From: Escherichia phage FFH2
Direction: 5' to 3' (one strand)
DNA length: 64,000 nucleotides
Sequence record: KJ190158
The notes under the pieces were generated by a model. The model was not told the DNA's origin. It worked only from the letters and a program-made list of their open reading frames with translations, and did no database searches. This document shows positions 1-62,082 of the stretch, one piece after another (the first letter of the stretch is position 1; each line of letters opens with the position of its first letter). Both the position numbers and the translations under genes were made by a program.

Positions 1-1983
1 TTATTTGATGTTATTCTTTGTATCGATCAGTTCACGGTATTCAATCATAGCAGGAGTGTCCCAATATTTCAAGCCTACATGCTTCAAAAGTGGGTATTTC
101 TTTTCCAATCTTGCAATATAGGCCTTCCCGCATTTAACTCGGTTGGCGATTAAGATTTTGGCACGATGATTTAGCTCACTATGCTTCCACGCGGTGTTAC
201 CTTCCCACTTGTGGAAATGTGGCCGATAATTTCCAAAATCTTGCATGGGAATAATTTTCCCTAATTGTCTATACAGGCTGTCATATGAAGTTTCATTTGC
301 TGCGCGAGTCAGTAAGAATTTCCAAGCATCCTCTTTCAACAAATGTTCCACACTCTTCTCTGTAACATACTGGCAATCAGGATCAGTCCAAAGCAGACGA
401 GATTCTGATACCAGGTACAGATCTTCCCCTTCAGGAATCTGGAGTGCCGCACGCACACGGTCATAATTTTGCTGGTAGATGTTACTCAGCTGTCCCAGCC
501 AACAACTTCCACGTTGGATATCACCCTCATAAGGAATGCAGTGCTTAATCTTCTTGAACTCTGCCTTAGTAATACGCTCACGACGGAAGTAACCATCCTT
601 CTCAAGTTTTTTAACCCAATACCCTGGCTCATAGTGAGTTTTTGTTTCACCTTTCTTTACAGGACGGCGAGGGAGCTCTGATAACAATTTGACCGTATCT
701 GCAAAGAACGGGTGGTGTGCCGCTTCTTTAAACTCTTCCACCCGATCCGTGTTACGGCAATAGAAAACGTTGCGTCCGGTGATCTCGCTTAAGTAGTTAC
801 ACTTATTTCGGTTATATTTGCCGTCTCCGTCGTTAAATACAAGGTATACACCTCGTAAGAACTCCGACTTTCCGTAACGAGCATAGCCTATGCGGCCTTT
901 ATTTAAGCCGCCAGCGAAAATTTCACAATCGCCTAAGTCGCCAAGCCCTGTTTCTTCCCAACGGTTCCACATAAAGTTTTTGCCGAAGATGTGTCCGAAC
1001 ACTCCACTGTTCTTCATCATCTCACGTGCTTCTGAGGATGTTTTTGCTGTCTCCAATTCCGCAACAACTTCTGCCCCACGAAGACGTATACCTTCTTTGA
1101 CAAAGGCCTCCAGGCGATCCTGGAATCCACCATCGTCGTGCCCCTCTATGGTCCATTCGCGCCCAGGGTTAATATTGCAATCCCCGATAGGGATCTCTAC
1201 ACAGATTGCAGGGTAGTCTGTCAATGTTTCCAGAAACTTAGAGCGGTAAGGTTGGTGTCCCATCACCACACGGCTCTCATCAGAGCTGGTATAACCTTTC
1301 AGGATAGTCATTTTCCAACCATCTTTCTCGTAATGATACTGTGCCTCAACCTTGTCACCTTCTAACATCTTACTGGTCATGGGATCGGTGACGATGAACG
1401 GAAACTTCGCATAGCGTAAGCACGATGCAATAGCAGTGCGATATTTCAGGACATGCTCTTTCTTAACATGGAACTGAACTTTTACCCCGTTGTGCTCTTC
1501 AGTCTTCCGCTCGCGGATCTTGGTAACGTTTGGGATACCCTGATCCAAGAACAATAGATATGTGCTTTCAATACCATTGTGCACACTGATAACATCGAAA
1601 GTGTCCACCATGCTGAACGGAGCCTTTGAACCAACACCTTTATTGCCAACCAGAGCGTTGCTGTTGCGCTTGGTTGACTCACCGAGGTTCATGAAAGTGT
1701 TGCGGACCATCTCTTCTGACATGCCCAATCCAACGTCCTGCACAAAGAAGTATGGTTCAAGGTCTGTAGGAGAGTGAATAATGATCGGCACATCACCCCG
1801 TCCAGACTCAACATGAGAGTCCACAGCATTGAAGATTGGTTCACGGCAGCTTGCCAGCACCTTATCTTCGTAAATCCCTTTAATGATTAGCCCAAAAGTC
1901 TCTTTGTTAAGAGAAATTGAGCCCCTGGTGACCTCCATATTTCCGGTTAGCACTGCTTTAGTTTCATTACTGTTTACAATCAT
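1..1983 (-). CDS. GHKL-superfamily (Bergerat-fold) ATPase domain protein, 660 aa, with ~400-aa uncharacterized C-terminal region
   Basis: Complete ORF (stop at 1-3). N-terminal motifs in GHKL order: EPIFNAVDS (ExxxNAxD), QDVGLGMS (DxGxG), GNKGVGSKA (Gly loop). Start overlaps stop of gene 1980-2480 by 4 nt (ATGA). Confidence 0.6.
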   Translation of the reverse strand: MIVNSNETKAVLTGNMEVTRGSISLNKETFGLIIKGIYEDKVLASCREPIFNAVDSHVESGRGDVPIIIHSPTDLEPYFFVQDVGLGMSEEMVRNTFMNLGESTKRNSNALVGNKGVGSKAPFSMVDTFDVISVHNGIESTYLLFLDQGIPNVTKIRERKTEEHNGVKVQFHVKKEHVLKYRTAIASCLRYAKFPFIVTDPMTSKMLEGDKVEAQYHYEKDGWKMTILKGYTSSDESRVVMGHQPYRSKFLETLTDYPAICVEIPIGDCNINPGREWTIEGHDDGGFQDRLEAFVKEGIRLRGAEVVAELETAKTSSEAREMMKNSGVFGHIFGKNFMWNRWEETGLGDLGDCEIFAGGLNKGRIGYARYGKSEFLRGVYLVFNDGDGKYNRNKCNYLSEITGRNVFYCRNTDRVEEFKEAAHHPFFADTVKLLSELPRRPVKKGETKTHYEPGYWVKKLEKDGYFRRERITKAEFKKIKHCIPYEGDIQRGSCWLGQLSNIYQQNYDRVRAALQIPEGEDLYLVSESRLLWTDPDCQYVTEKSVEHLLKEDAWKFLLTRAANETSYDSLYRQLGKIIPMQDFGNYRPHFHKWEGNTAWKHSELNHRAKILIANRVKCGKAYIARLEKKYPLLKHVGLKYWDTPAMIEYRELIDTKNNIK

Positions 1984-2480
1984 TTATTGCGCTCCTTGTA
2001 GTAGATATGGCTCCCGAATTGAGCTGTCCTCTGCATCTTTTTTGCCCATTTCGGTCGTACTTTGGTTGTATGGTAGTGTGTTGCTCCACCTGTTATGTCC
2101 ATAGCCATGTATGCAACATGGTTGTTATTATAGACCTTTAGAAGCATCTTTGCAAGACTTTTAGCGTGATCCCATGAATCTTTTTCTGTCACCTTAAAAG
2201 TTTTGCCGTGGTTTGTCCACGAAAACTGGTTAGGTTGGTAGACAATCTTTCTTATGGTGTCTGGGTATTTGGGGTGAGATTTCCTGTTTAGGGTGGCAAA
2301 CCCAGATGCCAGCATACCCATCGTGCCATCCCCTCTAGCTTCCCTGTAGATATTGCATGCCAGAATGTTTTCCTTAGTATCTGAGGGCTTGCAAGTATGA
2401 TATACTTTTTGTTTTGGTGCTGCAACAACAGGCAGCGATAAAAATGCGCTCAAAATAATAGCAAAGATCTTAATTTTCAC
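1980..2480 (-). CDS. Secreted cell-wall hydrolase, SleB/CwlJ-like; candidate endolysin
   Basis: N-terminal signal-peptide-like segment MKIKIFAIILSAFLSLPVVAAP; motif NIYREARGDG resembles the SleB-family signature; GGAG RBS 7 nt upstream of ATG. Confidence 0.5.
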   Translation of the reverse strand: MKIKIFAIILSAFLSLPVVAAPKQKVYHTCKPSDTKENILACNIYREARGDGTMGMLASGFATLNRKSHPKYPDTIRKIVYQPNQFSWTNHGKTFKVTEKDSWDHAKSLAKMLLKVYNNNHVAYMAMDITGGATHYHTTKVRPKWAKKMQRTAQFGSHIYYKERNK

Positions 2481-2919: not shown

Positions 2920-4104
2920 TTAAGCTTTAGCTAAAATGGCGCTAAACTCTTCACCAAACTCTTTTACAATCTTCATCAGGTTTGGGTACGCTTTGATCAG
3001 TTGAGCAACGATCTTGTCACGCCCTTTACCGATAAGCAAGGCATTTCCTAAGGCATTAGGTTTCATCATCGCCATAAAGACTGAGAATACAAAATCTCGG
3101 TTCTCGTCCTTGAAGTTTTCCCAAAGGAAATCGAGGAAGTTTGCCACGCAGCTGACAAGATCTTCATCTGAGATACTTGCATTTTCCATCATATTACGAA
3201 TAGCGATACAACCTTCAGATCCAAGAATCCACAAGATGTCTGGCTGTTTAGGACCTACGTATTCTTTGCAACCCCCTGCCATAATCCGACCGATTTCCGG
3301 TAAGTTGCGTTTCTTGGTGTGGTAGGTCCAGATCTCTACCGCTGCAGTGTGACCAATAGCACCTTGCAGAAGAACACGGGCCATAGCGTCAGAAATAATA
3401 CCGCTGTCAAAATCGTGCAAGATGTCAGATGCAGCAACCCAAGATCGTGGTGTGGCAAAAGATGGACAATTAATCTCAGCCATAGCCTCATAATTATCAA
3501 TAGCTGATGGAACTCTTTTCAGATACCCAATCACAGAGGAGTGAACCCCGTTGAGGAATGCGTAGTCCTCAATAAACACCTCTGCATTGCTTGTAACCTC
3601 TACAATGATAAAGCGGTTAGCCAGAGGGGCTTCGAGCGCCGAAAGAACCGCACCATCTGTAGAACGGTTACCAGCAGCCACAAAAACAGAACCTTTAGGG
3701 AATGCATAGGTACCGCACTTGTGGTCAAGCATAATTTGCATTGCAACCTTTTGCAGGTAGTTATCTGCATGAGTGAGCTCATCCAGAAAGATAATTCCGC
3801 TCCAGTTCGGATCTGCAGGCCAAAATTCTGGAATTGCAAACACTGTACGTGTAGTTCCATCAGCTTCTACAGGGATAGGTAGCCCAGATAAGTCGGCAGG
3901 ATCTTTATCTGACAGTCGCACGTCAACAAGGTTGTCATCTCGCTCACCGAACATATTATCAGCGATCTGCTTCATCACCTGGCTTTTACCCACACCCATT
4001 GGTCCCAAAATTAGGACAGATCGGCTATGACGTTGGGCAAACTGAATAATAGCTGGCAACTCACGGACAGTGATTTGACCACTTTCGAATACGTTTCTTG
4101 ACAT
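2920..4104 (-). CDS. MoxR/CbbQ-like AAA+ ATPase (AAA_5-type)
   Basis: Walker A GPMGVGKS and Walker B IIFLDEL in the translation; size and layout typical of MoxR-family ATPases. Confidence 0.7.
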   Translation of the reverse strand: MSRNVFESGQITVRELPAIIQFAQRHSRSVLILGPMGVGKSQVMKQIADNMFGERDDNLVDVRLSDKDPADLSGLPIPVEADGTTRTVFAIPEFWPADPNWSGIIFLDELTHADNYLQKVAMQIMLDHKCGTYAFPKGSVFVAAGNRSTDGAVLSALEAPLANRFIIVEVTSNAEVFIEDYAFLNGVHSSVIGYLKRVPSAIDNYEAMAEINCPSFATPRSWVAASDILHDFDSGIISDAMARVLLQGAIGHTAAVEIWTYHTKKRNLPEIGRIMAGGCKEYVGPKQPDILWILGSEGCIAIRNMMENASISDEDLVSCVANFLDFLWENFKDENRDFVFSVFMAMMKPNALGNALLIGKGRDKIVAQLIKAYPNLMKIVKEFGEEFSAILAKA

Positions 4105-5427: not shown

Positions 5428-5706
5428 TTAGGCAATTGTCATTTTACATTCTTGAAATTTTAACACAAGACGGTGATTGTGTCTAGTGTCTAAAAAGATT
5501 TTTTCAACCATCAGGCACACGGTATAACCGTCCATCTTGTTGACAACAAAATCTCCAGGATGAGGGAGGATGTCTCCCGGATTGGGGAAACATAGTTCAC
5601 TCAGAAAGGCATCGTCAGTGGTGGACTTAATAGATTTCCACACACTGTCTGCCTGAACATGTTCACCGACGTAATATACATTACCACATGCCTTCATCAT
5701 AGTCAA
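5428..5706 (-). CDS. Hypothetical protein (92 aa)
   Basis: ORF in operon, 4-nt overlap with upstream gene. Confidence 0.4.
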   Translation of the reverse strand: MTMMKACGNVYYVGEHVQADSVWKSIKSTTDDAFLSELCFPNPGDILPHPGDFVVNKMDGYTVCLMVEKIFLDTRHNHRLVLKFQECKMTIA

Positions 5707-6602
5707 ACCCTCGCATAAATTAAACTTGTATCAGTATACTTCTTTAATGGGTAAATATCCTGTCCATAGATGCAATCATTAAACACCTCATCTACCCAAA
5801 GGCTACACTTATATCCCATCATTTCTAAAACACCCATCTCTTCTTCGGTAAACTTATCACCGCTCTTGCAAGATGTCAATACCTCATTCTGAACTCTTGC
5901 CACCTCGAAGCGGTTATTGGCAATATCGCTATTGGCGATCAAATACTCACCTAAAGGGTGTGCGGCATTAAAGATGCACAGTGGACGGCTGACGTAATAG
6001 TCTCCGGGTGTATAAAAATTGTTGAGGTCTTTCACTAGAACATTCTTATCAGTCACTTCATTTATAACATCATGCATATCGCACATCTTTATATGTTTGA
6101 GGATTCCATCCCCCATCACAAAATAAAAACTTGCTGAGACACTTTCGGCATAGATCTTACTAGATCCGTTGTAGTTGTATTCTACTCGGATGCTAACGGG
6201 GGTTTTTCCTGTCGCGTTAGCCATCATCCAAAGAAATGGCAGCTCATACTTCTCCTCTGAGGAAACAAAAGGTGAGGTAGCCAGAGATCGAAAACCTCCA
6301 GAGAAGTTGAAAGTTACAGAACCGCTCCGGCGGTATGATACCGCGTATTCTACTTTTATATCGACGTACCCATTGGAATAGGTGTGTCCTTCATTATCTA
6401 AATATGTCCACTTATCAGACCCAGATACCAATCTACGCTCAATAACCTTCATCACTACAGGAATTAGTGGGTTGGTACAAACCGCTTTTGAAGTAGCTTT
6501 ATCATCTAAAGCCTCGTAAATTGCAGAAAGGATGTCCCCAGCTGAAAGATTGGTTGTTATGTCCTGTTTCCACCGCGTACTAAAACTGTTAAGATTTGCC
6601 AT
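5703..6602 (-). CDS. Hypothetical protein (299 aa), first gene of minus-strand early arm
   Basis: AGGAG RBS about 10 nt upstream of ATG; sigma70-like promoter immediately upstream. Confidence 0.55.
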   Translation of the reverse strand: MANLNSFSTRWKQDITTNLSAGDILSAIYEALDDKATSKAVCTNPLIPVVMKVIERRLVSGSDKWTYLDNEGHTYSNGYVDIKVEYAVSYRRSGSVTFNFSGGFRSLATSPFVSSEEKYELPFLWMMANATGKTPVSIRVEYNYNGSSKIYAESVSASFYFVMGDGILKHIKMCDMHDVINEVTDKNVLVKDLNNFYTPGDYYVSRPLCIFNAAHPLGEYLIANSDIANNRFEVARVQNEVLTSCKSGDKFTEEEMGVLEMMGYKCSLWVDEVFNDCIYGQDIYPLKKYTDTSLIYARV

Positions 6603-13685: not shown

Positions 13686-16600
13686 TTAACTAGGGAAGTT
13701 TGTATAAGCTTCGAGATGGTATTGCTGGTTACCAGGTAGCATAATACCTATACTTGCAAGACCTAATGTTCTACCACCAGGGTACCACTGGAACTTAAAT
13801 CCAATCCAGCCCGAGCTTCTGGCTGCATCGATGTTGTCACTGTACCCAAAGGTGGCTAGACCATCAACACCTGCTCCGAAAAGCAGTTGTATCTGGTTCC
13901 TTGGTAGGCCAATAATTTCAGGTATGTAAGCACCAAAAAATGTAGGGTTGGTGGTTGTGGTCGGATTGTCCATGACCGGACCGGTAAAGACCCTCATATT
14001 GGACGTTCCTGCAGGTCTAGGGTAAGCCCCGTCAAGAGGATTTCCTTCCCAAATAAACCACTGAGGTGCCATCTGTCTGACAGTAAACGATGTTGAAGAC
14101 GTTTTGCGGCCTGCATCATCTCTAACTACAAACTTTATGGTGACATTCCCAGTAGCTTTAAATGTTACCAGCCCTGTGGTGGCATCCACTGTTGCAATGT
14201 TGGTATTACTACTTTCCCAAGTCTTTCTAATCCCGGATACGTTGGAAGGGGTGATAGAAGGTTCCTGCATCTGCAGTTTACCGCCCACAATCCCTATGCC
14301 GTTGCCCGGATTATACAGCACACCGACCTCGTCTATAATGTTCCCTGCTTTGAGACTATACTTCCTTGAGAAGTTGTAAGTTCCGTTATAAGTGTGTGTC
14401 CCTGAGAATGTGACATCTGCCTTCCCGTAAGAGATGCAAACCAACGCATACTTCCTGTCAGGCAACGTTTCTCCAGTCTCTGGGTGAGTTTTACCTACCT
14501 GGAACACACTCGGGTCAGTAGAGTCGTGACTATCACTAACGGAGCTTGGACCGCCCATCAATTGTGACAAACAATTCCTTACCCATGTCCAGTTATTATC
14601 GCTGGAGAAGTCCACAGTCAAATCAAACACAACCCACTCATTTGGCTTCCACACAGGTGTTGCAATGGACTTGCCTACACCACCTCCTTGGAGTGTTGCC
14701 GACTGCTCGGTGATCAGGGCCGCATAGGCCAGAGTTCCTAAACTCAGAGTCTGGCTTGCTGTCCTCACTACCTTAGAATCAGCATCTGTGAAGTTGTTGA
14801 TGATTTGGAATGTGCCATAAGTGTTTTTACAGGTAATTCTGGCGTTCAGCGTGTCAATCTTCCTCACATCTGCCATAGCAGTGTTAGACACAGAGAAGTC
14901 AGAAGCTTTAGCTGAGTTTGCCGCAACAGCAGGATCAACGTTAAGAGTTGCGTTGAACTGACAGGCAGGGGTAACCAGCAGCTTGTTATCACCTATTTGC
15001 TTCCATGAAATACTTTGGACAGGTAGATTCCATTTAATACCTGAGAAAACTTTAGCAACCCTTGGCCCCAAAGCTCCAGTCCTGTTGTCTTTACAGCACA
15101 TAGACATGGTGATCGTTGACGGAGTTGCCTGACCAAATAATTGCTGTGCTTTTGCAGAGGACATAGTGTAGAAATTGTCCTTAACAAACTCATCAGCAGC
15201 TAAAGATCCATCAGCTCTCCACCACTGAACCTGGTACCCTGTTTTGTCCCAACCACCGACCTGCTTCAAGTCCTCCCAGGAGATTTCTAGATCCCCAGTG
15301 GTAGGGTTGATTGCAGCAGTTCCCGGTGTTCCGGGTGACCACAATGGAATATCGAACCACGCTGGTTTAACCGACTGCACTGCGCTGGGACCTATTGCGG
15401 CAGCAAGTTGCTGGCCCATCAATACGCGAGCATCTTTCACCAGACCCCACTCGATCATAGACCCAGAGTAACCTTCTTTCTTGTAGGCTGAGGATCCGTT
15501 CAAATGGATGAGTCGGCTTGTGCCAAAGTTATATGCCCCGCCACCATTATCATCTGCAAAATTGTATATGATTCTATCTCGGATATCTTTCCATGCTCTA
15601 CCGCCAATCTCGTAGTCATGGTCATAACATCTTTGCAGTGTTGTCCAGCAGATGATCGCCATCCTTCTGCCGTTACTAAAGCCAAAGGCCTGATCGTTGA
15701 GCTCTCTCCACAAGTAGCAGTTGGTAGTCCACATAGCTCTGTGAATGTTGAACCAATTTATAGACCTGGCTGCATTGTTGTAGGCAGTTCCTTCTAGCGT
15801 AGGCCACACTGCATTAACCAGCATGTCCTCTGTTCCTGCATCTATCAGGAATCCTCTCACTTTCTTACCCATACCTACTCTATCCTTGGCAATCCATGCG
15901 CCGAATAATTTCAGTTTAGGACCGATTACGGCATCCTCTGGATGCTCAAGAGAGACATACTTCAAGTATACTGTAGGATCACCGTAGGTGCCATCACAAA
16001 CAGCTTTGTGCATGTTCTCACCAAGATCCAGACGGATACCTGTGAGAGTCTTGGTATCATCTGTGAACTTATCTGTTAAATCAAACTCGTACCACCACCA
16101 CCCGGCTCCAAGTAAAACTTTCTTACAGCGCTTAGAGTCTGTGTCGGAGATTCTTTTATCTCCCGCATATGGTGAGTCTGCAAACTGGTAGTGCAGAGCA
16201 ACTTCAAAAGGATGTGTGGATGTTCCGTTTTCTGCAAGAACTTGCTTTCCGATCAGATCGCATTTAATAATCATCACGACACGTCTGTACCCATTGGCAA
16301 CTGGAACGTCGAACGGATACCTTGCACCATCCATATTCGCATGCAAAGCTGCGAAATTTATGTATGGGTCAACAGCGTTACCTAAAGTTTCAGGCCCTGG
16401 GATCATCTTGTACTTCTTGACCTGTCCCATGATATAGTCGCTGCCGTAGGTTGCAGCCTCGAAGCAAGAACCGCTGTCAGGCAGTTCAGCAGGCCCCCAA
16501 AAGTATGCCCCGTAACAATTATAGAACCACTTGTTAGGGTCATAGGTATTCTTGAAGGTCTGAACCTCGTTTGCCTGTTTTGTCAAGAAAACCTGAGTAT

Positions 16601-19313
16601 CTGTAAAGATTGCAGGATTTACCCTTGCCTGACGCGGAGGGTAACCTGTAGTTTGGTTAAACCACAGATTGCAAGAGTAATCCCTCATATAGTCATAATC
16701 AGAGTATTTGTTTACATCTTCGTTCCAACACATGTTCAGGTTGGTACCGCCCATGCATACAATATATTCTGCGACATACTTATCACTTCTGGTAGGAATA
16801 CCTATGAACCATCTGTTAACAGGCTCATCCCAAGCTGTGCGCTCATCTTTAACGCAGATAGCAATCCAGTCATGTGTTCCTGTTTTCTTGCACACATCTC
16901 GCTTCATACCATAGTAGAACTCTTTAGTATTCGGCTCAGGTGCATTTATCAGGTAACTCCATGCCTGATTTGCATAAGTCCCATTGGTGCGCGGATCATG
17001 ATCAAAGGCATACATGATGATCCTTTCCCCACCAAGATGTTCGCCAAGAGTAACTTTGACATTCACATCGCCGTAACCGTTGCGAACAACATCCATATTG
17101 TCAATAGAGATGCCTCTAGGAGTGTAGGCAATTTTCAGTGAGTTATTCTCATTAGCGCCACCAAGAGTGACCCCTATGTTGTTTGTTGTCCCGTCGGCAT
17201 ATCTTACTGTAGCTTCCCAGCGTATTCCGAAATATCCTGCATCATGGCTGACAATTTTCAGTGTACGAGCTCCCGGGTGAGGTTTTCCAGGATCAGGCCA
17301 AGGGTCTGGGTGTTCGTGAACAGTCAACGACGTTCCGTTCTGCTCATTAACCTGCAACATTTTACCACCCTTGCCATTAGGATTGAACTCCCACAAGGCT
17401 TGTGTTTTCACAATATTGTCATACGTGGCGCGTCTTTGATCGTAGATCTCTTGGGTCACATCATAAGTGACTGATCCAGCATCCATTCTGTAGAGTCTGA
17501 CCATATACGATGTATCCCCTTCTACTGCAGGCTGGGTCCCATTCAGCCCAAAGTATACAGTATCGTTAACATGGAACTGCTTGTTTCTACCAACGGTATG
17601 CCACTTGCCGTTGGACGGATACGCAGGAACTATAGTGTTCCAGTTCAAAGTCCTTGTCGTATAGGTTCTTCCAGTGCCATGCTTGTCATGGTAGGTGATC
17701 TTGATAGAATACAAACCACGTCTGTTGATGTTACGGTTATACTGGGTGACCACAACTTCGTTAGCACCACCATGGTTCCAGTTAGTGGAGAACTGATAGT
17801 TTGCATCTGTAACAACAGTGCCTGCAGCATTTACCAACTCAATCTTGTCAATAATGAACGTAGCACCCTCCGGCTGAGGTTTCAATTTCATCTTGACAGT
17901 ATCTCCGATGTAAATGTTGCTAACATTGCTCACACCATTGACATCAAAGATGTCTTCGATACCCCAGCTATCTACCGGGACATTTTTATACCAATTCTCC
18001 GGAATCTCTGTGAACCCTTGGCTGTTAAGTCTGCCGCCAAAGAGGTTATTAGATCCTGAAAAACTACCACGTGGTATTCCTGACCACCAAAGCTTTCCAT
18101 TTACCACACAGAATGTGCCTAAGAAACCTTCCCTGTGGATCCCTTGAAAATAAACGCTTTCTGTCCAGCTTACTGGCTCTGTCTGTTCAACAAACTTAGC
18201 TGTTGCCAGCGCTCTGTAATGAATAAAATTGGCCCTAGGACTATTATTAGCAGATTGAGCACCAATATCGTTACACAGGTTTCTGGAGAAACCACGGTAC
18301 TGTTTTGTACCATTATTGAAGAAAATTCCACTAGTCCCGTACCCGCGAGCCATAATTACTTCATGGGTATAGGTGATGTTAAGGCTTCTCCACGTGTCGT
18401 CACCCCAAACATCCTGACCATAAAACACATTAACAAGCTGTTGGTCATCAGGTTTGTGCATCCTTTCTGTGGCTATAATTGCACCATTAGGTCCACACAT
18501 GAACCCTTTCCATGTCTCGCCCACCGGGATGCCTTTAAACTGGTCAAGAGTCACATGCTCGGCTGGATAAACTAGTGTGTTTTTGCTGTTATTTCTTAAG
18601 AAATCGTAACCTGCAATCCAGAATCCGTTAGGACCACCAAAAATAACCGAGTTGTCATGAACTTCACAATTAATTCTTGGATTTTTCCAAGGACCTGTCT
18701 CTGGACTTTCAGATGTTTCACCGATCTTAACTGGAGTAGCGTGTTGACTTTTGTCAACATGAAGAGAGCCGTAAGTATTATTGCCAGAGCCGTACAGGTG
18801 AAGCATACCATCAGCCTCTGGTGCAGCAATTACCCACACTGTATTGTTTACGCCACCCATTACTTCAACAAGTCTCTCAGGATGGGTGTCCAAATGCAAC
18901 CCTGTTACGATCTGTTCCGGCAAAGGTGTCCACTCTCTGACACAAACATCGTTTCCACCTGCTGCCTCCGATCCGATAAGACCAGCTGTGCAACCAATAT
19001 AGAAAAATTTATTATCGAATGTGCGGATTACAAATGCACGGTCAGCTCTCCAAACATGGTCTACGTTCCAAGCTGCCTCATTAGGATAGTTTATTGTATC
19101 AAGATCTCCAGTCCGACACTCTCCGAACCTATTATAGCCAGTAATATTAAGCTGACCATCATCAAAAAGTATAGCTAAGCTATTTACATAGGATACTGTG
19201 TTGCTTGTACCATCACTGTTGTCTATTGGGTATGACAGAACAGCAAGTTCCTTAATTCCACCCCTCTTATCGAGGAAATGACGACCAAGTTTTAGCAAAG
19301 GGATTGGAAGCAT
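13686..19313 (-). CDS. Giant tail fibre or tailspike-like structural protein (1875 aa)
   Basis: Size and position in the fibre block; Ig-like segment TGLVTFKATGNVTIKFVV near C-terminus; Gly/Asn/Thr-rich repetitive composition. Confidence 0.55.
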   Translation of the reverse strand: MLPIPLLKLGRHFLDKRGGIKELAVLSYPIDNSDGTSNTVSYVNSLAILFDDGQLNITGYNRFGECRTGDLDTINYPNEAAWNVDHVWRADRAFVIRTFDNKFFYIGCTAGLIGSEAAGGNDVCVREWTPLPEQIVTGLHLDTHPERLVEVMGGVNNTVWVIAAPEADGMLHLYGSGNNTYGSLHVDKSQHATPVKIGETSESPETGPWKNPRINCEVHDNSVIFGGPNGFWIAGYDFLRNNSKNTLVYPAEHVTLDQFKGIPVGETWKGFMCGPNGAIIATERMHKPDDQQLVNVFYGQDVWGDDTWRSLNITYTHEVIMARGYGTSGIFFNNGTKQYRGFSRNLCNDIGAQSANNSPRANFIHYRALATAKFVEQTEPVSWTESVYFQGIHREGFLGTFCVVNGKLWWSGIPRGSFSGSNNLFGGRLNSQGFTEIPENWYKNVPVDSWGIEDIFDVNGVSNVSNIYIGDTVKMKLKPQPEGATFIIDKIELVNAAGTVVTDANYQFSTNWNHGGANEVVVTQYNRNINRRGLYSIKITYHDKHGTGRTYTTRTLNWNTIVPAYPSNGKWHTVGRNKQFHVNDTVYFGLNGTQPAVEGDTSYMVRLYRMDAGSVTYDVTQEIYDQRRATYDNIVKTQALWEFNPNGKGGKMLQVNEQNGTSLTVHEHPDPWPDPGKPHPGARTLKIVSHDAGYFGIRWEATVRYADGTTNNIGVTLGGANENNSLKIAYTPRGISIDNMDVVRNGYGDVNVKVTLGEHLGGERIIMYAFDHDPRTNGTYANQAWSYLINAPEPNTKEFYYGMKRDVCKKTGTHDWIAICVKDERTAWDEPVNRWFIGIPTRSDKYVAEYIVCMGGTNLNMCWNEDVNKYSDYDYMRDYSCNLWFNQTTGYPPRQARVNPAIFTDTQVFLTKQANEVQTFKNTYDPNKWFYNCYGAYFWGPAELPDSGSCFEAATYGSDYIMGQVKKYKMIPGPETLGNAVDPYINFAALHANMDGARYPFDVPVANGYRRVVMIIKCDLIGKQVLAENGTSTHPFEVALHYQFADSPYAGDKRISDTDSKRCKKVLLGAGWWWYEFDLTDKFTDDTKTLTGIRLDLGENMHKAVCDGTYGDPTVYLKYVSLEHPEDAVIGPKLKLFGAWIAKDRVGMGKKVRGFLIDAGTEDMLVNAVWPTLEGTAYNNAARSINWFNIHRAMWTTNCYLWRELNDQAFGFSNGRRMAIICWTTLQRCYDHDYEIGGRAWKDIRDRIIYNFADDNGGGAYNFGTSRLIHLNGSSAYKKEGYSGSMIEWGLVKDARVLMGQQLAAAIGPSAVQSVKPAWFDIPLWSPGTPGTAAINPTTGDLEISWEDLKQVGGWDKTGYQVQWWRADGSLAADEFVKDNFYTMSSAKAQQLFGQATPSTITMSMCCKDNRTGALGPRVAKVFSGIKWNLPVQSISWKQIGDNKLLVTPACQFNATLNVDPAVAANSAKASDFSVSNTAMADVRKIDTLNARITCKNTYGTFQIINNFTDADSKVVRTASQTLSLGTLAYAALITEQSATLQGGGVGKSIATPVWKPNEWVVFDLTVDFSSDNNWTWVRNCLSQLMGGPSSVSDSHDSTDPSVFQVGKTHPETGETLPDRKYALVCISYGKADVTFSGTHTYNGTYNFSRKYSLKAGNIIDEVGVLYNPGNGIGIVGGKLQMQEPSITPSNVSGIRKTWESSNTNIATVDATTGLVTFKATGNVTIKFVVRDDAGRKTSSTSFTVRQMAPQWFIWEGNPLDGAYPRPAGTSNMRVFTGPVMDNPTTTTNPTFFGAYIPEIIGLPRNQIQLLFGAGVDGLATFGYSDNIDAARSSGWIGFKFQWYPGGRTLGLASIGIMLPGNQQYHLEAYTNFPS

Positions 19314-19320
19314 TGTGTTC

Positions 19321-19354
19321 TCCAGATAAGAAAACCGCCCCGTCAGGAGCGGTT
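19321..19354 (-). terminator. Hairpin AACCGC...GCGGTT with U-rich tail, copy 1
   Basis: Inside duplicated unit. Confidence 0.45.
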
Positions 19355-19361
19355 AGATATA

Positions 19362-19649
19362 TTAACGTTGTGCAATTACTACGTCTACAATATCACCAAC
19401 ACCACAATACGTTAATTGCAGCAAGGTAACACTGTTAGCCTTGTTGTTAATAACAGGTGTTGCCGACAGGATAGCATACTTATCGTGCAAAGTCACGTTG
19501 TGACCTAGTACTGGGCTATTTACATAGGATACTGTGTTGCTTGTACCATCACTGTTGTCTATTGGGTATGACAGAACAGCAAGTTCCTTAATTCCACCCC
19601 TCTTATCGAGGAAATGACGACCAAGTTTTAGCAAAGGGATTGGAAGCAT
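19362..19649 (-). pseudogene. Chimeric ORF made by tandem duplication: N-terminus of the 1875-aa fibre fused to C-terminus of the 581-aa protein
   Basis: First 45 aa identical to start of 13686-19313 product; last ~43 aa identical to end of 19698-21443 product; lies within duplicated copy. Confidence 0.45.
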
Positions 19650-19656
19650 TGTGTTC

Positions 19657-19690
19657 TCCAGATAAGAAAACCGCCCCGTCAGGAGCGGTT
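19657..19690 (-). terminator. Same hairpin, copy 2 (after the 581-aa gene)
   Basis: Identical to copy 1, offset 336 bp. Confidence 0.45.
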
Positions 19691-19697
19691 AGATATA

Positions 19698-21443
19698 TTA
19701 ACGTTGTGCAATTACTACGTCTACAATATCACCAACACCACAATACGTTAATTGCAGCAAGGTAACACTGTTAGCCTTGTTGTTAATAACAGGTGTTGCC
19801 GACAGGATAGCATACTTATCGTGCAAAGTCACGTTGTGACCTACAGCATCCTGAATGACATAGATAACTGCAGTGAATGGATAAGGTTTATCTTCCGCTG
19901 ATGTCCCAGGCCACTGTCCTATTGTAAAATCCCCTTTCGCGTGGACAACATACATGCTGGCCTGCCCGTTAGGTGTCCATGTCCCACTGGACGCGTCAAC
20001 CTCCTCTAAGTCAAAATCTACCTTTCCTGCGTGGAAAGTAGGGGCAGTAATGGTTTTACCCGCCTCAATTTCTTGAGAGGTGGTTATCTTACCACTGGAG
20101 TTAATGCCATTACAGACAAAGTTGACATTAGAGAAGTCTGGCAGCCACCCGGTCACTGTGCCGGATATTTCAAGGTTGTGAAGGTGGGTGGTGCCAGTCC
20201 CTGCGGCGTTTAAACTAACATCTCCATTTACCTGCAAGTTTCTGGTAATGTTGCAGTTTTCAGAGTTTGCAGTTGTTGCAGTTAAAGTGGTGGTGGTTAG
20301 CTCGGTAATTGTACCTTTATTGGCTGTAAGCCCTTCTCCTTCAAAAGTTGCACGCTCATTGACTCTTAGAGTATTCAGAGCTATATTTTGGATAGAGGCT
20401 GTACCTCGAATAACTACAGACCCGCCAACCTCCAAATCGCCATTTATCAATGCATCACCCGTGCTTTCAATATAGCTAGGGTAGATCATGGTGCCATCGA
20501 CAGAGTATGTTATCCCTGTAACGGTACCTGTCACCTCAAGGTTCTTAACCCTGGTGGTCCCATCGACCTGCAATGTCGGTTCGGTTGCTGCCTTCATGGC
20601 ATTACCACGAATGTACACGTAGTCAAAAAAGTTATTACCCAGACCATCAAAATGCACATCGTTATTATTAGCCACTGGTTTCCCAGAAGTTATAGTGTCA
20701 GCTATAACCCTGTGGGTGGACACTTCATGAGGTTGCAGCTCTGTACTTCTCCAGTCTGCATGCTTAGGATCGCTCCACGCAAAAGTAAGTGTAGAAGTAT
20801 TTGCCGTGAGGATTAGATTCCTAAAGCGTGCAGTAGAATCTGCCCCATTAACAGGTCCATGTAAGGTAAGGGTGCCACCAACTATAGTGTTAGCGAGTTC
20901 TGTAAGACCTTTTACCACCAAAGACCCTACAGTAACTTTCATCCCCTCCATGGCTTTAAATATGCTATCAACATAGTCAACAACAAACTCTGTGTTTGCT
21001 ATGGACTCTGACTTATCGTCCATTGGAGGTGTAGGTACTCGTGGGTCACCTTCGAACCTCGGGCTGTTAAGTTTTGCGTAGTATTTTGCCATTACTGCAG
21101 AGTCGGTATATAATCTCCAGTTTGGAGATTGTGAAGGATCTGCTGGCATTCTAACCGGGTTAGATTTTGATGCTGCGGGAGCGTACCACCACTGGGGGCC
21201 TGTGTCCCCTTTAAACTCGTACAGCTGGTTAAAAACTGTTGTGGATGCACCATACGCCCAAGGGATCGGTGGCGTTTTAAAATAAAGGTTGTCAAGCATG
21301 GCTTTTCGTACCGTAGGGATGGTGGTCCCATCCTCTACGACAACTTCATCCACAGCGTTACCGTTGACAACCAAGTGCAAACGTTCAGAATCAACAATTA
21401 CTTGATCTACCGCCTGCTCAAAGCTTGTCATGTCTTGCGCCAT
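19698..21443 (-). CDS. Tail fibre or tailspike-like protein (581 aa)
   Basis: Position in fibre module; Thr/Gly/Asn-rich repetitive beta-type composition. Confidence 0.5.
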   Translation of the reverse strand: MAQDMTSFEQAVDQVIVDSERLHLVVNGNAVDEVVVEDGTTIPTVRKAMLDNLYFKTPPIPWAYGASTTVFNQLYEFKGDTGPQWWYAPAASKSNPVRMPADPSQSPNWRLYTDSAVMAKYYAKLNSPRFEGDPRVPTPPMDDKSESIANTEFVVDYVDSIFKAMEGMKVTVGSLVVKGLTELANTIVGGTLTLHGPVNGADSTARFRNLILTANTSTLTFAWSDPKHADWRSTELQPHEVSTHRVIADTITSGKPVANNNDVHFDGLGNNFFDYVYIRGNAMKAATEPTLQVDGTTRVKNLEVTGTVTGITYSVDGTMIYPSYIESTGDALINGDLEVGGSVVIRGTASIQNIALNTLRVNERATFEGEGLTANKGTITELTTTTLTATTANSENCNITRNLQVNGDVSLNAAGTGTTHLHNLEISGTVTGWLPDFSNVNFVCNGINSSGKITTSQEIEAGKTITAPTFHAGKVDFDLEEVDASSGTWTPNGQASMYVVHAKGDFTIGQWPGTSAEDKPYPFTAVIYVIQDAVGHNVTLHDKYAILSATPVINNKANSVTLLQLTYCGVGDIVDVVIAQR

Positions 21444-21452
21444 GATTTCTCC

Positions 21453-21719
21453 TTAAGCTTTTTGCTCTTCGTTTTTAACGTGGTCAGGGTGCTGGCAACC
21501 CCACCGGAGCGAGATGAATTTGCTAATAAGCTGGGGGCAAGCTACTGAAGGCGCGTATATCCACGCATACCATTCAGGAAGCGTATCATTATACCCCATA
21601 TGAATAAACACCCCAGTCATCACCGCCATGCCTATGTTCGACCATAGCTTAGTTTGGGACACTTTCGTAGGGTCATCAGATGCCGCAACCAGTCCCCATA
21701 AAAACTGAGTTAGTTTCAT
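21453..21719 (-). CDS. Small hydrophobic protein (88 aa), membrane-associated
   Basis: Hydrophobic stretches FLWGLVAA and IGMAVMTGVFIHMG; immediately downstream of RBP paralogue 2. Confidence 0.35.
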   Translation of the reverse strand: MKLTQFLWGLVAASDDPTKVSQTKLWSNIGMAVMTGVFIHMGYNDTLPEWYAWIYAPSVACPQLISKFISLRWGCQHPDHVKNEEQKA

Positions 21720-21730
21720 TTACCCTCTTT

Positions 21731-22774
21731 TTAAGCATAAGATATAGTGATCCATTGACCATTTACAAGTTTTTGGATAGCACCTGTCCAGTAATCACCT
21801 TGATAAGGGTGTTTATAAGCGTAGTTACCAGAGCACATCACATGTCCAGGGTAGACTCTTGACTCTCTGTAGGTGGTTTTGAAACGGTTTGCTATCCTTA
21901 CATCATCAACCCCTCTGCTGGGCATAGGGATAGTAAGGTTACCACTACTGTCTGCGCCGTTACCATTTACCCTGCGGACCACGTTTCTTCCACCAACTGT
22001 TGCATATTGACCCCTGACTGTTTCATTGTTACAATCAACTCTTCCACCTATTTGAGCGCTTCCGCAGGATTGTTGTCCGTTAACAGTGGCTCTTGGTATC
22101 GTGACCGCATTGGCATTTGCAGAGGAACTTTTTGCATCGTTGCATTCAAGATTTCCTTGGATGGCCAGTCTTGCACGGTTGGCAGTTATAGCATTGAGCT
22201 TCATAGCCGAAAACACAGGCTGCCCACCAGAAGGTTGAAATCTCCAACGGAACCCGTCTATTTGGTGAGAAGGATCATCAAGGTCTGTGCCGTCAGCACC
22301 ACCGATGTTGTCCATAATCCAGAAATCCATCGTCGTCTTGTCTGGAGTTATGGTGGTATATATTGCCGCATTGTCTGTTGACGCAGATGCAAACTCGATT
22401 CTTTGAAGACCTAAAGTTTGAGTCTGAGTCATTATGTCTCCAGACTTGTCAACATACAGATCGTCCATTTCTTCAGGCGAGTATACATTGAGAACTTGAC
22501 GTGCAGCAGCTTTGTCTGGAACGTCTGCTAGATTATTAGTGACCCTTAAGAATCTATTATCCCATCCTGGGACAACATCTTCTGTTAGATGCTTTAACCA
22601 CGCAGAAAGCATGTGAAGTTCAAAGTTAACAACTTCACATGCCACTCTTTGTGTCATATCCCAACCTTTCAATCTCTCTTCTTTTTTTGGTTGAGACTTA
22701 TTCAACTCTCCCGTATTTTCAAGCACAACATCCTGATTGGCCCAAATATCAAGAGGGATAACTGGTTTAGTCAT
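21731..22774 (-). CDS. Receptor-binding tail fibre protein, paralogue 2 (347 aa)
   Basis: Conserved termini with 23789-24829 product (N-terminal PLxIWA, central RWRFQP and LNAITANRA, C-terminal QKLVNGQWITxxYA); divergent centre. Confidence 0.55.
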   Translation of the reverse strand: MTKPVIPLDIWANQDVVLENTGELNKSQPKKEERLKGWDMTQRVACEVVNFELHMLSAWLKHLTEDVVPGWDNRFLRVTNNLADVPDKAAARQVLNVYSPEEMDDLYVDKSGDIMTQTQTLGLQRIEFASASTDNAAIYTTITPDKTTMDFWIMDNIGGADGTDLDDPSHQIDGFRWRFQPSGGQPVFSAMKLNAITANRARLAIQGNLECNDAKSSSANANAVTIPRATVNGQQSCGSAQIGGRVDCNNETVRGQYATVGGRNVVRRVNGNGADSSGNLTIPMPSRGVDDVRIANRFKTTYRESRVYPGHVMCSGNYAYKHPYQGDYWTGAIQKLVNGQWITISYA

Positions 22775-23788: not shown

Positions 23789-24829
23789 CTATGCATAATT
23801 AACAGTGATCCATTGACCATTTACAAGTTTTTGTAAAGGTCCTGCCCAGTAGGTTGAACCACGCATCTCTTTTTTGTCACCGAAATGCCAGCCTGTGACA
23901 ACGTAGCCGTTGCGGATTGGAGATTCAGAAACGCCGTCCACAAGTCTTGCACCGATTCTGATGTCTTGCACACCTGTCTGCGGGATAGTGATCGTTACAT
24001 CACCGTTACCGTTAGCCGTCACTCCATTCACGGAGCGCACCACATTTCTGTTACCGACAACACAGTGCTGGCTTCTTACAACCATACTGTCACAACTTGC
24101 ACCACCATTAACATATACTGACCCAGCCGTCAACTGACTAGCCACATTACAGTTGGTGAATGTTGCTGTATTGCTGATAGTAAGGTTATTGCACCTCATG
24201 TTATCGACAACTTCAACATTGCCTACCACTTTCAACAGCGCACGATTAGCCGTGATCGCGTTAAGGTACATCAAAGTGAACTCTGGATTAATATCCGGCT
24301 GAGTTGGCTGGAATCTCCAACGAAACGCATCTACCGTAGATGTACCACCATCATCAAACGACCCAGCATTATCACTTAACCCAAAGTCGAGAGTTGTCTT
24401 ATCCGGGCCAATAGTTGTCTCTATCCAAGCCTTATCTGTCTCGGCAGCTTTAAAGTTGATACGTTGCAAACCCAATGGGCCTGTCATTGTATCACCTGTA
24501 ACTTTTACATACCTGGCGTCTGCCTCTTCCTTAGTAATAATCCCAAGGTTTCTACGGGCAACAGGAATGTTCAAAAGATCACTCAAGTTATTATCACGTA
24601 CCAGATAACGGCCTTCTTGAGCGGGGATCTGCTCGTCAGCAATGTATTTTGCCCAAGTTCCGAGCATATTGAAAATATAGTTAAGTTCTTCACATGAGGG
24701 CTTTTGACCAAGATCCCAACCTTTTCTCCACAAATCATCAATCGGGCGTAGCCTGTTCTGTCTGTGGGTGTTAGGCAGAACCTGATCCTCCTCTGCCCAA
24801 ATCTCTAATGGAAAACTAGGTTTTGACAT
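23789..24829 (-). CDS. Receptor-binding tail fibre protein, paralogue 1 (346 aa)
   Basis: Paralogue of 21731-22774 with shared termini and divergent centre. Confidence 0.55.
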   Translation of the reverse strand: MSKPSFPLEIWAEEDQVLPNTHRQNRLRPIDDLWRKGWDLGQKPSCEELNYIFNMLGTWAKYIADEQIPAQEGRYLVRDNNLSDLLNIPVARRNLGIITKEEADARYVKVTGDTMTGPLGLQRINFKAAETDKAWIETTIGPDKTTLDFGLSDNAGSFDDGGTSTVDAFRWRFQPTQPDINPEFTLMYLNAITANRALLKVVGNVEVVDNMRCNNLTISNTATFTNCNVASQLTAGSVYVNGGASCDSMVVRSQHCVVGNRNVVRSVNGVTANGNGDVTITIPQTGVQDIRIGARLVDGVSESPIRNGYVVTGWHFGDKKEMRGSTYWAGPLQKLVNGQWITVNYA

Positions 24830-32200: not shown

Positions 32201-32807
32201 AGTCTAGGATCACCAAGGCCGCGTTATTGGTATACACCTCTTTACTGATACGAGGATCATAGCATTTTTTACCAACCTTGACAAGTGTAACGTTTGGCAA
32301 CCCAAAAGGAAACTTGTTAGGGTCAAACCTGAAGCTGGCACGTAGCCAACTGATCCCTCTACCTATCATGTCGGGTGACCATGATGGGCAGTGTGTACCC
32401 ATGAAAGGATCAGATGTTTTTCTGTCGTTATGTAGCTCCCACGATACCAGATCTCCATACGAGGAAATAGGATTACCGTCGATAAGTATATCTTCTACAC
32501 CTTCCAGAGGGTGATTGGCAAGAACAATAGCACAATGGAGGGTTCTGTCTCTGTCCTGCTCCAAAAACGCAAGCAATCCAGACGTACGTGTCTTACCATA
32601 CACTACAGAGCAAGGTGCAGCAGAAGATCTGAGAAGCTTTTGTCTATCTTGCTGACTTCTGTAAGATTTGTTGCCCTCAAAAATCTTATCCAGAGTTCTG
32701 GTGGTAACAGTGTTCAGGCTGTCAGCCAGAGCTGCCTTGGATGCGTTCCAGTCATAACTTGAAGATCTTGCAGAAGCAACGATGTTATCAATCATTGCAA
32801 TTGGCAT
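29208..32807 (-). CDS. Central fibre or host-specificity J-like protein (1199 aa)
   Basis: Globular N-terminal half, long heptad coiled-coil region, C-terminal GxFxG repeats (TSGTFRGDVYANNGSFRGTIDATGGTFRG); follows three small tail genes in a lambda M-L-K-J-like order. Confidence 0.5.
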   Translation of the reverse strand: MPIAMIDNIVASARSSSYDWNASKAALADSLNTVTTRTLDKIFEGNKSYRSQQDRQKLLRSSAAPCSVVYGKTRTSGLLAFLEQDRDRTLHCAIVLANHPLEGVEDILIDGNPISSYGDLVSWELHNDRKTSDPFMGTHCPSWSPDMIGRGISWLRASFRFDPNKFPFGLPNVTLVKVGKKCYDPRISKEVYTNNAALVILDYLRTYLKCPDETINWESFKEAANICDEAVKNADGTSERRYTINGEFDMDEAPASIMAEMLKACGADLSYVAGKYGLLVGAYYGPATMTLSEDCVCGEVKIYPEASFDKRSNTITGRFTSPTKGYSETDFPSVFVPEWIEKDGERKIIDIDYRFVTSPYQAQRVSAIFLRRARAGRIIEVTCNMRGFKFKPGRYVTMDLPSIGIVGQEMRVLEWEFTKKGGVKVKLRQDAKEWNDATGQLPDSGDVDIPISPSGVAQPQNFRYSVLQAGEVTHGVLAWDNVGTYAQNIVQVRKNGEIVWTAQTVEQFVRVEGLTKGSYTATVVATSYKGGVSPEAYCEFNIQAPEAPVSVEVKQGYFAITLIPHSRDLASVSTQYDFWTSGMTRLPDTSDATVTSKATRMGVGSTWTSEGLQNDKIYYWYIRTTNAFGSSAFVECAAHCYTSIEDLMPQIDAEFKKTETYKELTANLDNAVKEMDKNVGAVNDRVTSIFEELGDTIEGVVRETTEKFTGVNGEISALNSKLVAAQQSFDDKLAAESGRLGSLIETTNRSTVDLVNRKTQALSEQITATQGTLREELKNTESKLNSSIQETNKATTDLLNKTTEAIKQDLVAATGKITKLEDDVQKEVANLQASIQETNSTTVDLVNNTATAIRQELTSAKQEIVDEMGNIDELRATVSNTSKAVTTLEGKIDAQWGAKIQVDSAGNKYVAGIQLGMEGSGGQVQSYFMVSANNFAVYNPGNGTATLAFAIKNNQAFLKDAFIENGTISSAKIAQEISSNNYDGNGYHKYGWYINKNGHAQFMDVWVKGNINASSGNFTGAVNATSGTFRGDVYANNGSFRGTIDATGGTFRGRVEASVIRANQFEGAIVAHRTYGDCAPVYNSQQRVCRWRWRYVDNVSGQGKNVTFFFKLNGTLASSQLNAWIAGHQILAGKKYFNDNNGMCAVGITGLGEQTIDIVIEIYTPWSTSSVTGVTISCPTVIVSRSNSSFQGPWNESHD

Positions 32808-34473: not shown

Positions 34474-34806
34474 TTAAAGTGCTTCCAAGGTGGATACTGA
34501 TGGGTCGAACATGTTCAACCTTATCGGATCTACAACTTTTCCGCTTTTAGAGACGATGTTTTCTGCATCCTCGTCCAGAGCCAGAACGTTAACATAAAAC
34601 AATTCACTTTTCTCGCAAACCTGGTAGACAACCATGTTGCCAAATTCATCTTCGGCCTCATAAGTGTCTCCAGTCTCTGTGTAAATGAACCCGACAACCT
34701 CTACAAGAAGGGTGTTTTGCAACACCTCATTCTCGTAAAAGCCGATTTCGTCCATGAAACCGTTAAAATCCTCCCTGTCAGTAAACCCAAGGGTAAAAGT
34801 ATTCAT
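34474..34806 (-). CDS. Acidic hypothetical protein (110 aa), possible fibre chaperone
   Basis: Start overlaps stop of the 1479-aa fibre gene; strong UUCG terminator follows. Confidence 0.35.
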   Translation of the reverse strand: MNTFTLGFTDREDFNGFMDEIGFYENEVLQNTLLVEVVGFIYTETGDTYEAEDEFGNMVVYQVCEKSELFYVNVLALDEDAENIVSKSGKVVDPIRLNMFDPSVSTLEAL

Positions 34807-61918: not shown

Positions 61919-61995
61919 TGGTCTCCACGGAGTGATTCGAACACTCGACCTCCTGATCCCAAATCAGGCGCTCTACCAAGCTGAGCTACGCGGAG
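61919..61995 (-). tRNA. tRNA-Pro (anticodon UGG)
   Basis: Hand-folded cloverleaf: acceptor CTCCGCG/CGTGGAG (C1-G72), anticodon stem CCTGA/TCAGG, loop TTTGGGA, T-loop TTCGAAT, encoded CCA. Confidence 0.75.
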
Positions 61996-62006
61996 TATTT
62001 ACTATT

Positions 62007-62081: not shown

Positions 62082-62082
62082 T

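Follow-up and report, generated by a model that had tools for sequence, protein, structure and literature searches.

A perfect 329-bp tandem repeat between two lateral tail fibre genes in an rV5-like Escherichia coli phage record: probably an artefact of genome finishing

The first part of a Vequintavirus genome, that of an rV5-like E. coli phage, carries a perfect 329-bp tandem repeat across the junction of two lateral tail fibre genes, and this repeat stands alone among the more than 130 related genomes and assemblies compared. We analysed a stretch of 64 kb (referred to below, at its full length, as the window). The repeat is not a conserved fusion gene, its junction being present in no other known genome, and we consider it probable that it is an artefact of genome finishing: an overlap of contig ends that was left untrimmed together with 7 nt of end junk and was internalised when the record was rotated, an assembly history that we infer.

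The original prediction described two 329-bp direct copies with a period of 336 bp, and both the exact identity and the period hold: 329 of 329 nt are the same in a script comparison, and TRF returns a period of 336, 2.0 copies, 100% matches and a score of 1330. The copies are direct and stand head-to-tail, as a duplication would place them; the 64-kb window contains no other long exact direct repeat, and a perfect match of 329 nt cannot have arisen by chance. The 336-bp period, made up of the 329-bp unit and a 7-nt filler, corresponds to 112 codons. The parts of the repeat, in window coordinates, are as follows.

19179-19507, no strand: copy 1 of the 329-bp unit, 100% identical to 19515-19843; in minus-strand order, a gp28-type gene copy contributes its final 146 nt, the intergenic region 48 nt and the authentic 1875-aa gene its first 135 nt.
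19508-19514, no strand: filler GTACTGG, 7 nt, between the copies.
19515-19843, no strand: copy 2 of the 329-bp unit (from repeat detection and identity comparison); here it is the 3' end of the 581-aa gene that is authentic, followed by the intergenic region and a duplicate of the 135 nt with which the 1875-aa gene begins.

As had been proposed, the terminator in each copy thus stands between the 3' end of the 581-aa gene and the 5' end of the 1875-aa gene. All genes of the locus, including the three open reading frames (ORFs) listed here, lie on the minus strand.

19698-21443, minus strand: 581-aa lateral tail fibre gene, intact; an ORF, orthologue of rV5 gp28 and bas54_0040.
19669-19690, minus strand: native intrinsic terminator-like hairpin that follows the 581-aa gene, AACCGCTCC-TGAC-GGGGCGGTT with a T-rich tail.
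19362-19649, minus strand: 95-aa chimeric ORF, in frame; not on record as a protein.
19333-19354, minus strand: duplicate of the terminator hairpin, immediately upstream of the 1875-aa gene.
13686-19313, minus strand: 1875-aa lateral tail fibre gene, intact, with an Ig-like/intimin domain; an ORF, orthologue of rV5 gp27 and bas54_0041.

The repeat leaves both fibre genes intact, and their ORFs are unaltered relative to those of single-copy relatives. The 581-aa protein, whose orthologue is labelled “with glycosidase domain” in the BASEL records, is homologous to the phiTE tail fibre 9cuy_g (E = 2e-77, with the alignment at the C-terminus), and an identical protein is present in 72 blocks of the searched collection; in the 1875-aa protein, Pfam matched a Big_2 domain. 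The hairpin has a fold energy of -17.8 kcal/mol (z = -2.9) in RNA folding, and the HdK5 and Murica records annotate a terminator at this hairpin. Its duplication, noticed at the outset, is borne out by its presence at both 19690-19669 and 19354-19333.

Translation of the 95-aa ORF confirmed the proposed in-frame chimera of one fibre's N-terminus with the other protein's C-terminus: 45 N-terminal residues of the 1875-aa protein are joined to 47 C-terminal residues of the 581-aa protein through a PVL linker, for which the filler and the copy edge code. The C-terminal part was first given as 48 aa, which holds only if the stop codon is counted. The chimera is in frame because the period happens to be divisible by 3, a 1-in-3 chance. 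The 59 nt upstream of its ATG (terminator plus GGAGAA ribosome-binding site) are the same as those upstream of the 1875-aa gene, and its tryptic junction peptide would be ELAVLSYPIDNSDGTSNTVSYVNSPVLGHNVTLHDK. The in-frame ORF, the strong ribosome-binding site ahead of it and the terminator after it speak for a stable fusion gene kept by selection for some function, such as regulating fibre docking or competing with it. We nevertheless regard such a gene as extremely improbable. The two copies show zero divergence, which leaves no evolutionary time under selection; a Pfam search of the chimera found no match; and AF2 gave a pLDDT of 38.6, which, coming from a single sequence and no alignment, is weak evidence. 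The 47 C-terminal residues appear to begin about halfway into a conserved C-terminal domain of roughly 100 aa, with limits judged from the 9cuy_g alignment, so that the C-terminal half of the chimera would be a truncated domain. With the flanking genes unchanged, this domain apparently cut and the pLDDT low, the repeat shows no sign of function.

About 112-120 GenBank Vequintavirus records match the locus either minus 336 bp or as two pieces on both ends of one 329-bp unit, and none of them crosses the junction. In 10 independent NCBI, ENA and Logan assemblies that carry the identical 581-aa protein, the next fibre gene begins 48 nt downstream, in single copy, and among the fetched loci the 21 that span the 329-bp unit, 3 of them IMG/VR contigs, each have it exactly once. 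A 32-nt junction sequence had 0 matches in viral, genome and metagenome contig collections and none in a phage collection, and the 95-aa chimera had no exact match in a collection of about 15 billion proteins. The suggestion of a stable fusion gene is effectively excluded by this absence of both the junction and the 95-aa protein from every relative and collection searched. Exact look-ups of the 1875-, 1479- and 1199-aa proteins and of the chimera, aimed at the same phage in another assembly, returned no match, and a literature search on fibre duplications in Vequintavirus found nothing relevant.

At this locus the window equals the genomes of isim, MaxBurger, L005 and L006 plus exactly 336 bp, and its flanks are 100% identical to MaxBurger, L005 and L006 across 17500-21500. 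These comparisons bear on a further possibility, that two co-infecting Vequintaviruses underwent an unequal crossover at the conserved block formed by the 3' end of gp28 and the 5' end of gp27 during a swap of distal fibre modules. The unit itself is highly conserved (92-100% identity in all relatives), with almost no variation in the intergenic region or in the ~50 codons that open the 1875-aa gene, whereas its left flank is only 65-85% identical in FV3, EmilHeitz, Murica and NHEP1; the left breakpoint falls within this conserved N-terminal part of the 1875-aa gene, 20-50 bp from a conserved-to-variable (mosaic) boundary. Moderate allelic variation in the large fibre gene has also been reported by the BASEL authors (PMC8594841). 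Against these points, flanks and copies are all 100% identical to one genotype (MaxBurger, L005, L006), with no second parent detectable, the right breakpoint stands at no mosaic boundary, and homologous exchange in a conserved block would leave neither a duplication nor a filler. We therefore consider modular exchange very improbable, and a two-parent recombination was rejected, the MaxBurger/L005/L006 genotype matching both flanks at 100%. The footprint of fibre swapping proposed earlier keeps weak support in the mosaic boundary near the left breakpoint; with the flanks matching a single genotype, no swap is shown.

The contexts of the two breakpoints (AGCTAA/GCTATT and GACCTA/CAGCAT) have no common microhomology, and the copies are instead separated by 7 untemplated nucleotides; in the single-copy relative isim, which lacks the filler, GACCTA is followed directly by CAGCATC. 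The filler GTACTGG matches neither native flank, and no template with matching flanks was found in the 64-kb window, where the 7-mer has 3 further occurrences (about 8 are expected) that have at most 1-2 flanking G's in common with the junction. The junction-spanning string across the filler is CCTAGTACTGGGC, and longer strings containing the filler, such as CTAGTACTG, occur in the window only at the junction. In a list of common Illumina, Nextera, 454, Ion, ONT and PacBio adapters there was no exact 7/7 match to the filler, the best being 6/7 (to Ion P1); this comparison is uninformative. When duplications arise in vivo in phages and bacteria, the join is normally made at microhomology, whereas junk bases are common at contig ends.

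The filler also creates an AGTACT (ScaI) site, as a scar of deliberate engineering might. With so many recognition sequences known, a single 6-cutter site at the junction is nothing out of the ordinary. This origin, and likewise that of a misplaced direct terminal repeat marking the genome ends, seems to us scarcely credible. A tandem identical pair does have the look of an internalised terminal repeat (PMC8785237); rV5, however, is reported to be circularly permuted rather than terminally repeated with fixed ends, the records of its relatives begin at many positions and pass the locus in single copy, and a terminal repeat would carry no 7-nt filler.

The preferred reading, a finishing artefact, starts from this same genome structure. 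Genomes of rV5 are circularly permuted (PMC3606486), and repeats placed in the middle of a record are a recurrent problem according to the Phage Annotation Guide (PMC8785237). The first genes of the window stand at rV5 coordinates (1..1983, 1980..2480, 2920..4104 and 5703..6602), so the assembly must have been cut and re-joined and the record rotated to the rV5 start. The record belongs to a circularly permuted genus and was re-oriented after assembly, its copies are identical and adjacent, and the remaining region is collinear with single-copy relatives. Events probably ran as follows. A circularly permuted genome gives a contig with arbitrary ends whose termini overlap; here the overlap would have measured 329 bp, with one terminus carrying 7 nt of low-quality junk, GTACTGG. 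This junk would defeat an exact check for overlapping ends, so that the overlap would be left untrimmed, and when the contig was cut and re-joined to begin at rIIA, as in rV5, the overlap would become an internal tandem repeat. Both the second terminator and the chimeric ORF would then be by-products of the chance position of the contig ends. Of the three alternatives put forward in the original prediction, assembly artefact is the best supported, by the singleton occurrence, the perfect identity, the untemplated filler and the permuted, rotated genome.

In other respects the quality at base level is good, and no frameshift interrupts the large structural genes. Poor assembly quality was considered as a support for the artefact and dropped: no frameshifts were found, and the short gp37 homologue owes its length to an in-frame indel of 80 aa. 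The length of the overlap also sits awkwardly with the artefact, 329 bp not being among the k-mer overlaps usual for de Bruijn assembly (55, 77 or 127), and an overlap-type assembler or manual joining must therefore be assumed.

Two small palindromes lie at the breakpoints.

19171-19183, no strand: ATAGCT-A-AGCTAT, spanning the left breakpoint 19178/19179.
19829-19841, no strand: GTCAC-GTT-GTGAC, 2 nt before the right breakpoint 19843/19844; a copy lies at 19493-19505.

Both breakpoints are thus within 3 nt of a palindrome with a stem of at least 5 bp, as are about 14.8% of positions (joint chance ~0.02), and the junction 12-mer CCTAGTACTGGG is 10/12 palindromic, as against 0.45% of 12-mers in the background. 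These observations and that of the mosaic boundary, all of them post hoc, would be predicted by an in vivo event associated with secondary structure and not by random contig ends; together with the clean assembly, they count against the artefact.

They bear on its main competitor, a genuine, very recent and near-neutral tandem duplication in the sequenced stock, produced when sister genomes underwent illegitimate recombination or template switching at the two hairpin-forming palindromes, with the 7-nt filler inserted. We hold this to be possible, if rather doubtful. The palindromes favour it slightly, and further support comes from the near-palindromic junction, the sharp conserved-to-variable boundary beside the left breakpoint, the atypical overlap length and the otherwise clean assembly. 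A genuine duplication could have persisted through near neutrality: the fibre genes are intact, and only a second terminator and an anchor-only 95-aa peptide would have been added. The orthologue bas54_0041 tolerates disruptive insertions and is dispensable on E. coli K-12, and most of the gp27-type fibre gene is absent from the natural variant L011; a polar effect on this gene would therefore carry little cost. Phage fibre loci are, moreover, known to undergo real tandem duplication, as in EfV12-phi1 (PMC6365445).

On the other side stand the singleton status of the repeat, an untemplated filler at a join without microhomology, which is atypical for duplications in phages and bacteria, and the lack of any apparent selective benefit, neither fibre protein being altered. 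By our own estimate, a spontaneous duplication that became fixed in a plaque-purified isolate also has a lower prior than a finishing error. Unless it is selected, a perfect 329-bp tandem repeat would be expected to disappear rapidly from a recombination-proficient phage through homologous recombination. It is more speculative still, and we think quite unlikely, that the repeat is genuine and represents a trapped intermediate of hairpin-associated illegitimate recombination at the edge of the conserved N-terminal anchor module of the Vequintavirus lateral tail fibre, one that would tune down the dispensable gp27-type fibre through the doubled terminator and an anchor-only competitor peptide; if true, it would offer a direct snapshot of how the exchange of distal fibre modules begins.

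The main value of the finding lies in quality control of the record. If the repeat is an artefact, the host-range locus of the record contains 336 bases, a 95-aa chimeric “gene” and a second terminator that are all spurious, and such errors would spread to catalogues of fibres and receptor-binding proteins, to pangenomes and to training sets. If it is real, it is a modest, probably neutral junction-spanning duplication at a phage fibre locus, unusual for its filler and breakpoint palindromes, and the understanding of how fibres work would be unchanged.

Duplications in the gene 37 adhesin of T4 were reportedly described by Tetart et al. in 1996, a study to which PMC6365445 also refers. Like the 1.8-kb in-frame fibre duplication of EfV12-phi1 (PMC6365445), the present repeat is head-to-tail, lies in the fibre locus of a lytic myovirus and has a period divisible by 3. 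Duplications of the EfV12-phi1/T4 gene 37 type, however, lie inside one ORF, lengthen the fibre, recur under selection and vary in copy number, whereas the unit described here spans a stop codon, a terminator, a ribosome-binding site and a start codon, and lengthens no fibre. With the exchange of fibre modules described for the BASEL phages (PMC8594841) it has in common a near-invariant N-terminal anchor with variable sequence just downstream in some relatives, but the window shows no exchange, and homologous exchange makes no filler-bearing duplication. From the case in the Phage Annotation Guide, in which true terminal repeats are placed internally (PMC8785237), it differs in that the genus has no fixed terminal repeat, 329 is no standard k-mer and a 7-nt filler is present. 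It resembles the contig-end overlaps left untrimmed, or the repeats internalised on re-orientation, in assemblies of circularly permuted or terminally redundant phages (PMC8785237), with identical adjacent copies in only one record, a genome that assembles as a circle and a record that has been rotated.

The two direct copies of the repeat (19179-19507 and 19515-19843) were identical at 329 of 329 positions by script comparison, with a second repeat finder concordant, and Tandem Repeats Finder returned 2.0 copies with a period of 336 and 100% matches, as originally described; no further long exact direct repeats were found within the 64-kb window. ORF and hairpin mapping also bore out the 95-aa in-frame chimera and the doubled terminator between the fibre genes. 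The filler between the copies and, in transcription order, the elements of the locus are:

19508-19514: filler GTACTGG, separating the two copies
21443 to 19698, minus strand: 581-aa gene
19690-19669, minus strand: terminator-like hairpin
19649 to 19362, minus strand: 95-aa ORF (the chimera)
19354-19333, minus strand: second hairpin, identical to the first
19313 to 13686, minus strand: 1875-aa gene

The hairpin (fold energy -17.8 kcal/mol, z = -2.9) carries a terminator annotation in several relatives. The chimera joins the N-terminal 45 residues of the 1875-aa protein to the C-terminal 47 residues of the 581-aa protein through a Pro-Val-Leu linker specified by the filler plus the copy edge, and the 59 nt 5' of the chimera (terminator plus GGAGAA ribosome-binding site) are the same 59 nt found 5' of the 1875-aa gene. 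Because both full-length genes are intact, the duplication merely adds material between them.

Orthologues of the 581-aa gene are rV5 gp28 and, in a BASEL collection phage, bas54_0040 (“lateral tail fiber protein with glycosidase domain”); those of the 1875-aa gene, which encodes a Big_2 domain, are gp27 and bas54_0041 (“lateral tail fiber protein with intimin domain”). Homology between the 581-aa protein and 9cuy_g, a phiTE tail fibre protein of solved structure, is clear (E = 2e-77), and from this alignment, which reaches the extreme C-terminus, the C-terminal part of the chimera appears to begin about halfway into a conserved C-terminal domain of ~100 residues. The AF2 single-sequence model of the chimera was poor (pLDDT 38.6; weak evidence). 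The suggestion of a stable fusion gene was dismissed: the chimera is conserved nowhere, has no family match, and there is zero divergence between the copies.

The proposed comparison with related genomes found a single copy of the unit in every relative. Among the matches listed, just 1365 bp (1701 minus 336) of a 1701-bp query around the repeat were covered; a 151-bp junction-spanning probe never aligned contiguously, its halves falling at opposite ends of one 329-bp unit with the filler unaligned, and a 6-kb query around the locus gave the same single-copy outcome. In all 10 independent NCBI, ENA and Logan assemblies with an identical 581-aa protein, its gene is followed after 48 nt by the next fibre gene, and the unit occurs exactly once in 21 of 21 fetched loci covering it (three IMG/VR contigs included). 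The 32-nt junction was not found in viral, genome or metagenome contig collections, nor did protein look-up find a record of the chimera. In the related phage isim, CAGCATC directly follows GACCTA, so that the window equals isim plus a clean 336-bp insertion, and subtracting the 336 bp makes the window essentially 100% identical to MaxBurger and to two Logan contigs throughout 17500-21500. Since a single existing genotype thus perfectly matches both flanks, the recombination footprint first envisaged for this fibre junction is unlikely in the form of a two-parent module swap. The assembly artefact raised alongside it is now the favored reading.

In one of the independent assemblies with an identical 581-aa gene, a Logan contig (ERR13960830, 4795-5856), all that is left of the 1875-aa gene (window 13686-19313) is a 353-aa ORF with unrelated small genes after it; this natural variant has lost most of the gp27-type fibre, in keeping with its reported dispensability on K-12. 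Separately, 15-16 GenBank records titled “Campylobacter phage” (MG065635, MG065654, MG065666, MG065658 and others; stated host C. jejuni) match E. coli Vequintaviruses at 98-100% identity over the locus (window 18700-20400), which suggests mislabelled or contaminant genomes.

The source phage is an rV5-like myovirus (genus Vequintavirus), the window being its initial 64 kb; the repeat region shares 98-100% identity with a large number of E. coli phages, and the initial 20 kb ~96% with the closest records. Its first genes lie at rV5 coordinates (rIIA 1..1983, then 1980..2480, 2920..4104 and 5703..6602), and the record has therefore been rotated to the rV5 convention. The gp37 homologue (29208-32807) is 80 aa shorter than that of rV5 through an in-frame deletion inside a diverged block (rV5 29676-30543, window 30192-30819), and the gp41-type large fibre (34806-39245) has 1479 aa versus 1272 in rV5; look-ups of the exact proteins found neither of them on record, and the phage therefore has unreported fibre alleles. 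Paralogous short tail fibre genes (347 and 346 aa; homologues of rV5 gp30 and gp33) share a 62-nt direct repeat of 84% identity at their 3' ends (21732-21793 and 23790-23851). A cluster of seven tRNA genes (61919-62731) includes a 99-nt ARAGORN call (62164-62262, minus strand) with no identity given and a 4-base “anticodon” (atcc), which could be a pseudo-tRNA, an intron-containing tRNA or a frameshift-suppressor-like tRNA.

No microhomology was found between the breakpoints (AGCTAA/GCTATT and GACCTA/CAGCAT), nor does the filler match either of the native flanks; within the window no template flanked by matching sequence was found for it, and it matched none of a list of common adapters exactly. 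Untemplated filler without microhomology is generally atypical of duplications that arise in vivo in phages or bacteria. A perfect 329-bp tandem repeat is also expected to be unstable in a recombination-proficient phage, and both points weigh against a real, very recent tandem duplication, which we consider possible but rather doubtful. Such a duplication would be near-neutral, leaving both fibres unchanged; on E. coli K-12, insertions that disrupt bas54_0041 are tolerated (bioRxiv 10.1101/2025.11.20.689424), and the Logan contig ERR13960830 is a natural variant without most of the gene. If real, it would likely strengthen termination before the 1875-aa gene, because the terminator-to-ribosome-binding-site gap is too short for a promoter, and would likely yield a peptide consisting of the anchor alone, which might be a weak competitor for the site where the fibre docks.

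We lean instead toward a finishing artefact. Because rV5 genomes are circularly permuted (PMC3606486), they assemble into a contig whose ends are arbitrary and overlap, and this record has demonstrably been cut and re-joined to begin at rIIA. With some junk bases at one end of the contig, an exact end-overlap check would fail and exactly the “copy, 7 nt, copy” arrangement would result; that repeats land inside phage records is a problem known to recur (PMC8785237).

Against an artefact, the assembly is otherwise clean, with gp37 intact, and the overlap length of 329 is not a standard k-mer. Both breakpoints lie <=3 nt from small palindromes (ATAGCT-A-AGCTAT and GTCAC-GTT-GTGAC), as near as ~14.8% of window positions (joint chance ~0.02, post hoc), and the junction 12-mer CCTAGTACTGGG is palindromic at 10/12 positions, as are 0.45% of background 12-mers, with roughly ten possible registers (again post hoc). 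In the divergent relatives EmilHeitz and Murica, an identity of ~75% gives way abruptly to 100% around 19131-19161, 20-50 bp to the left of the left breakpoint (a post hoc observation). These coincidences, not expected of random contig ends, point away from an artefact with modest strength. The 1875-aa gene holds sharp mosaic boundaries (18500-19160 versus FV3, EmilHeitz, Murica and NHEP1): its initial ~50 codons are near-invariant, the following ~650 nt are 65-85% identical in one relative group, and near 18400-18500 a second switch sets apart another (isim, HdK5), a pattern typical of fibres in which the N-terminal anchor is conserved and the distal parts are exchangeable.

Most probably, then, the repeat is not a real biological feature; failing that, it is a singleton duplication, neutral and of recent origin. 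Adaptive fibre duplications are documented in T4 gene 37 and in EfV12-phi1. Those of EfV12-phi1 are 1.8-kb in-frame units of variable copy number, selected during coevolution (PMC6365445). In both phages they lie within one ORF and lengthen the fibre, whereas the present repeat lacks that defining feature; it likewise lacks the microhomology of classical illegitimate-recombination duplications and the fixed ends of terminal repeats. At the sequence level it shows every feature of an untrimmed overlap.
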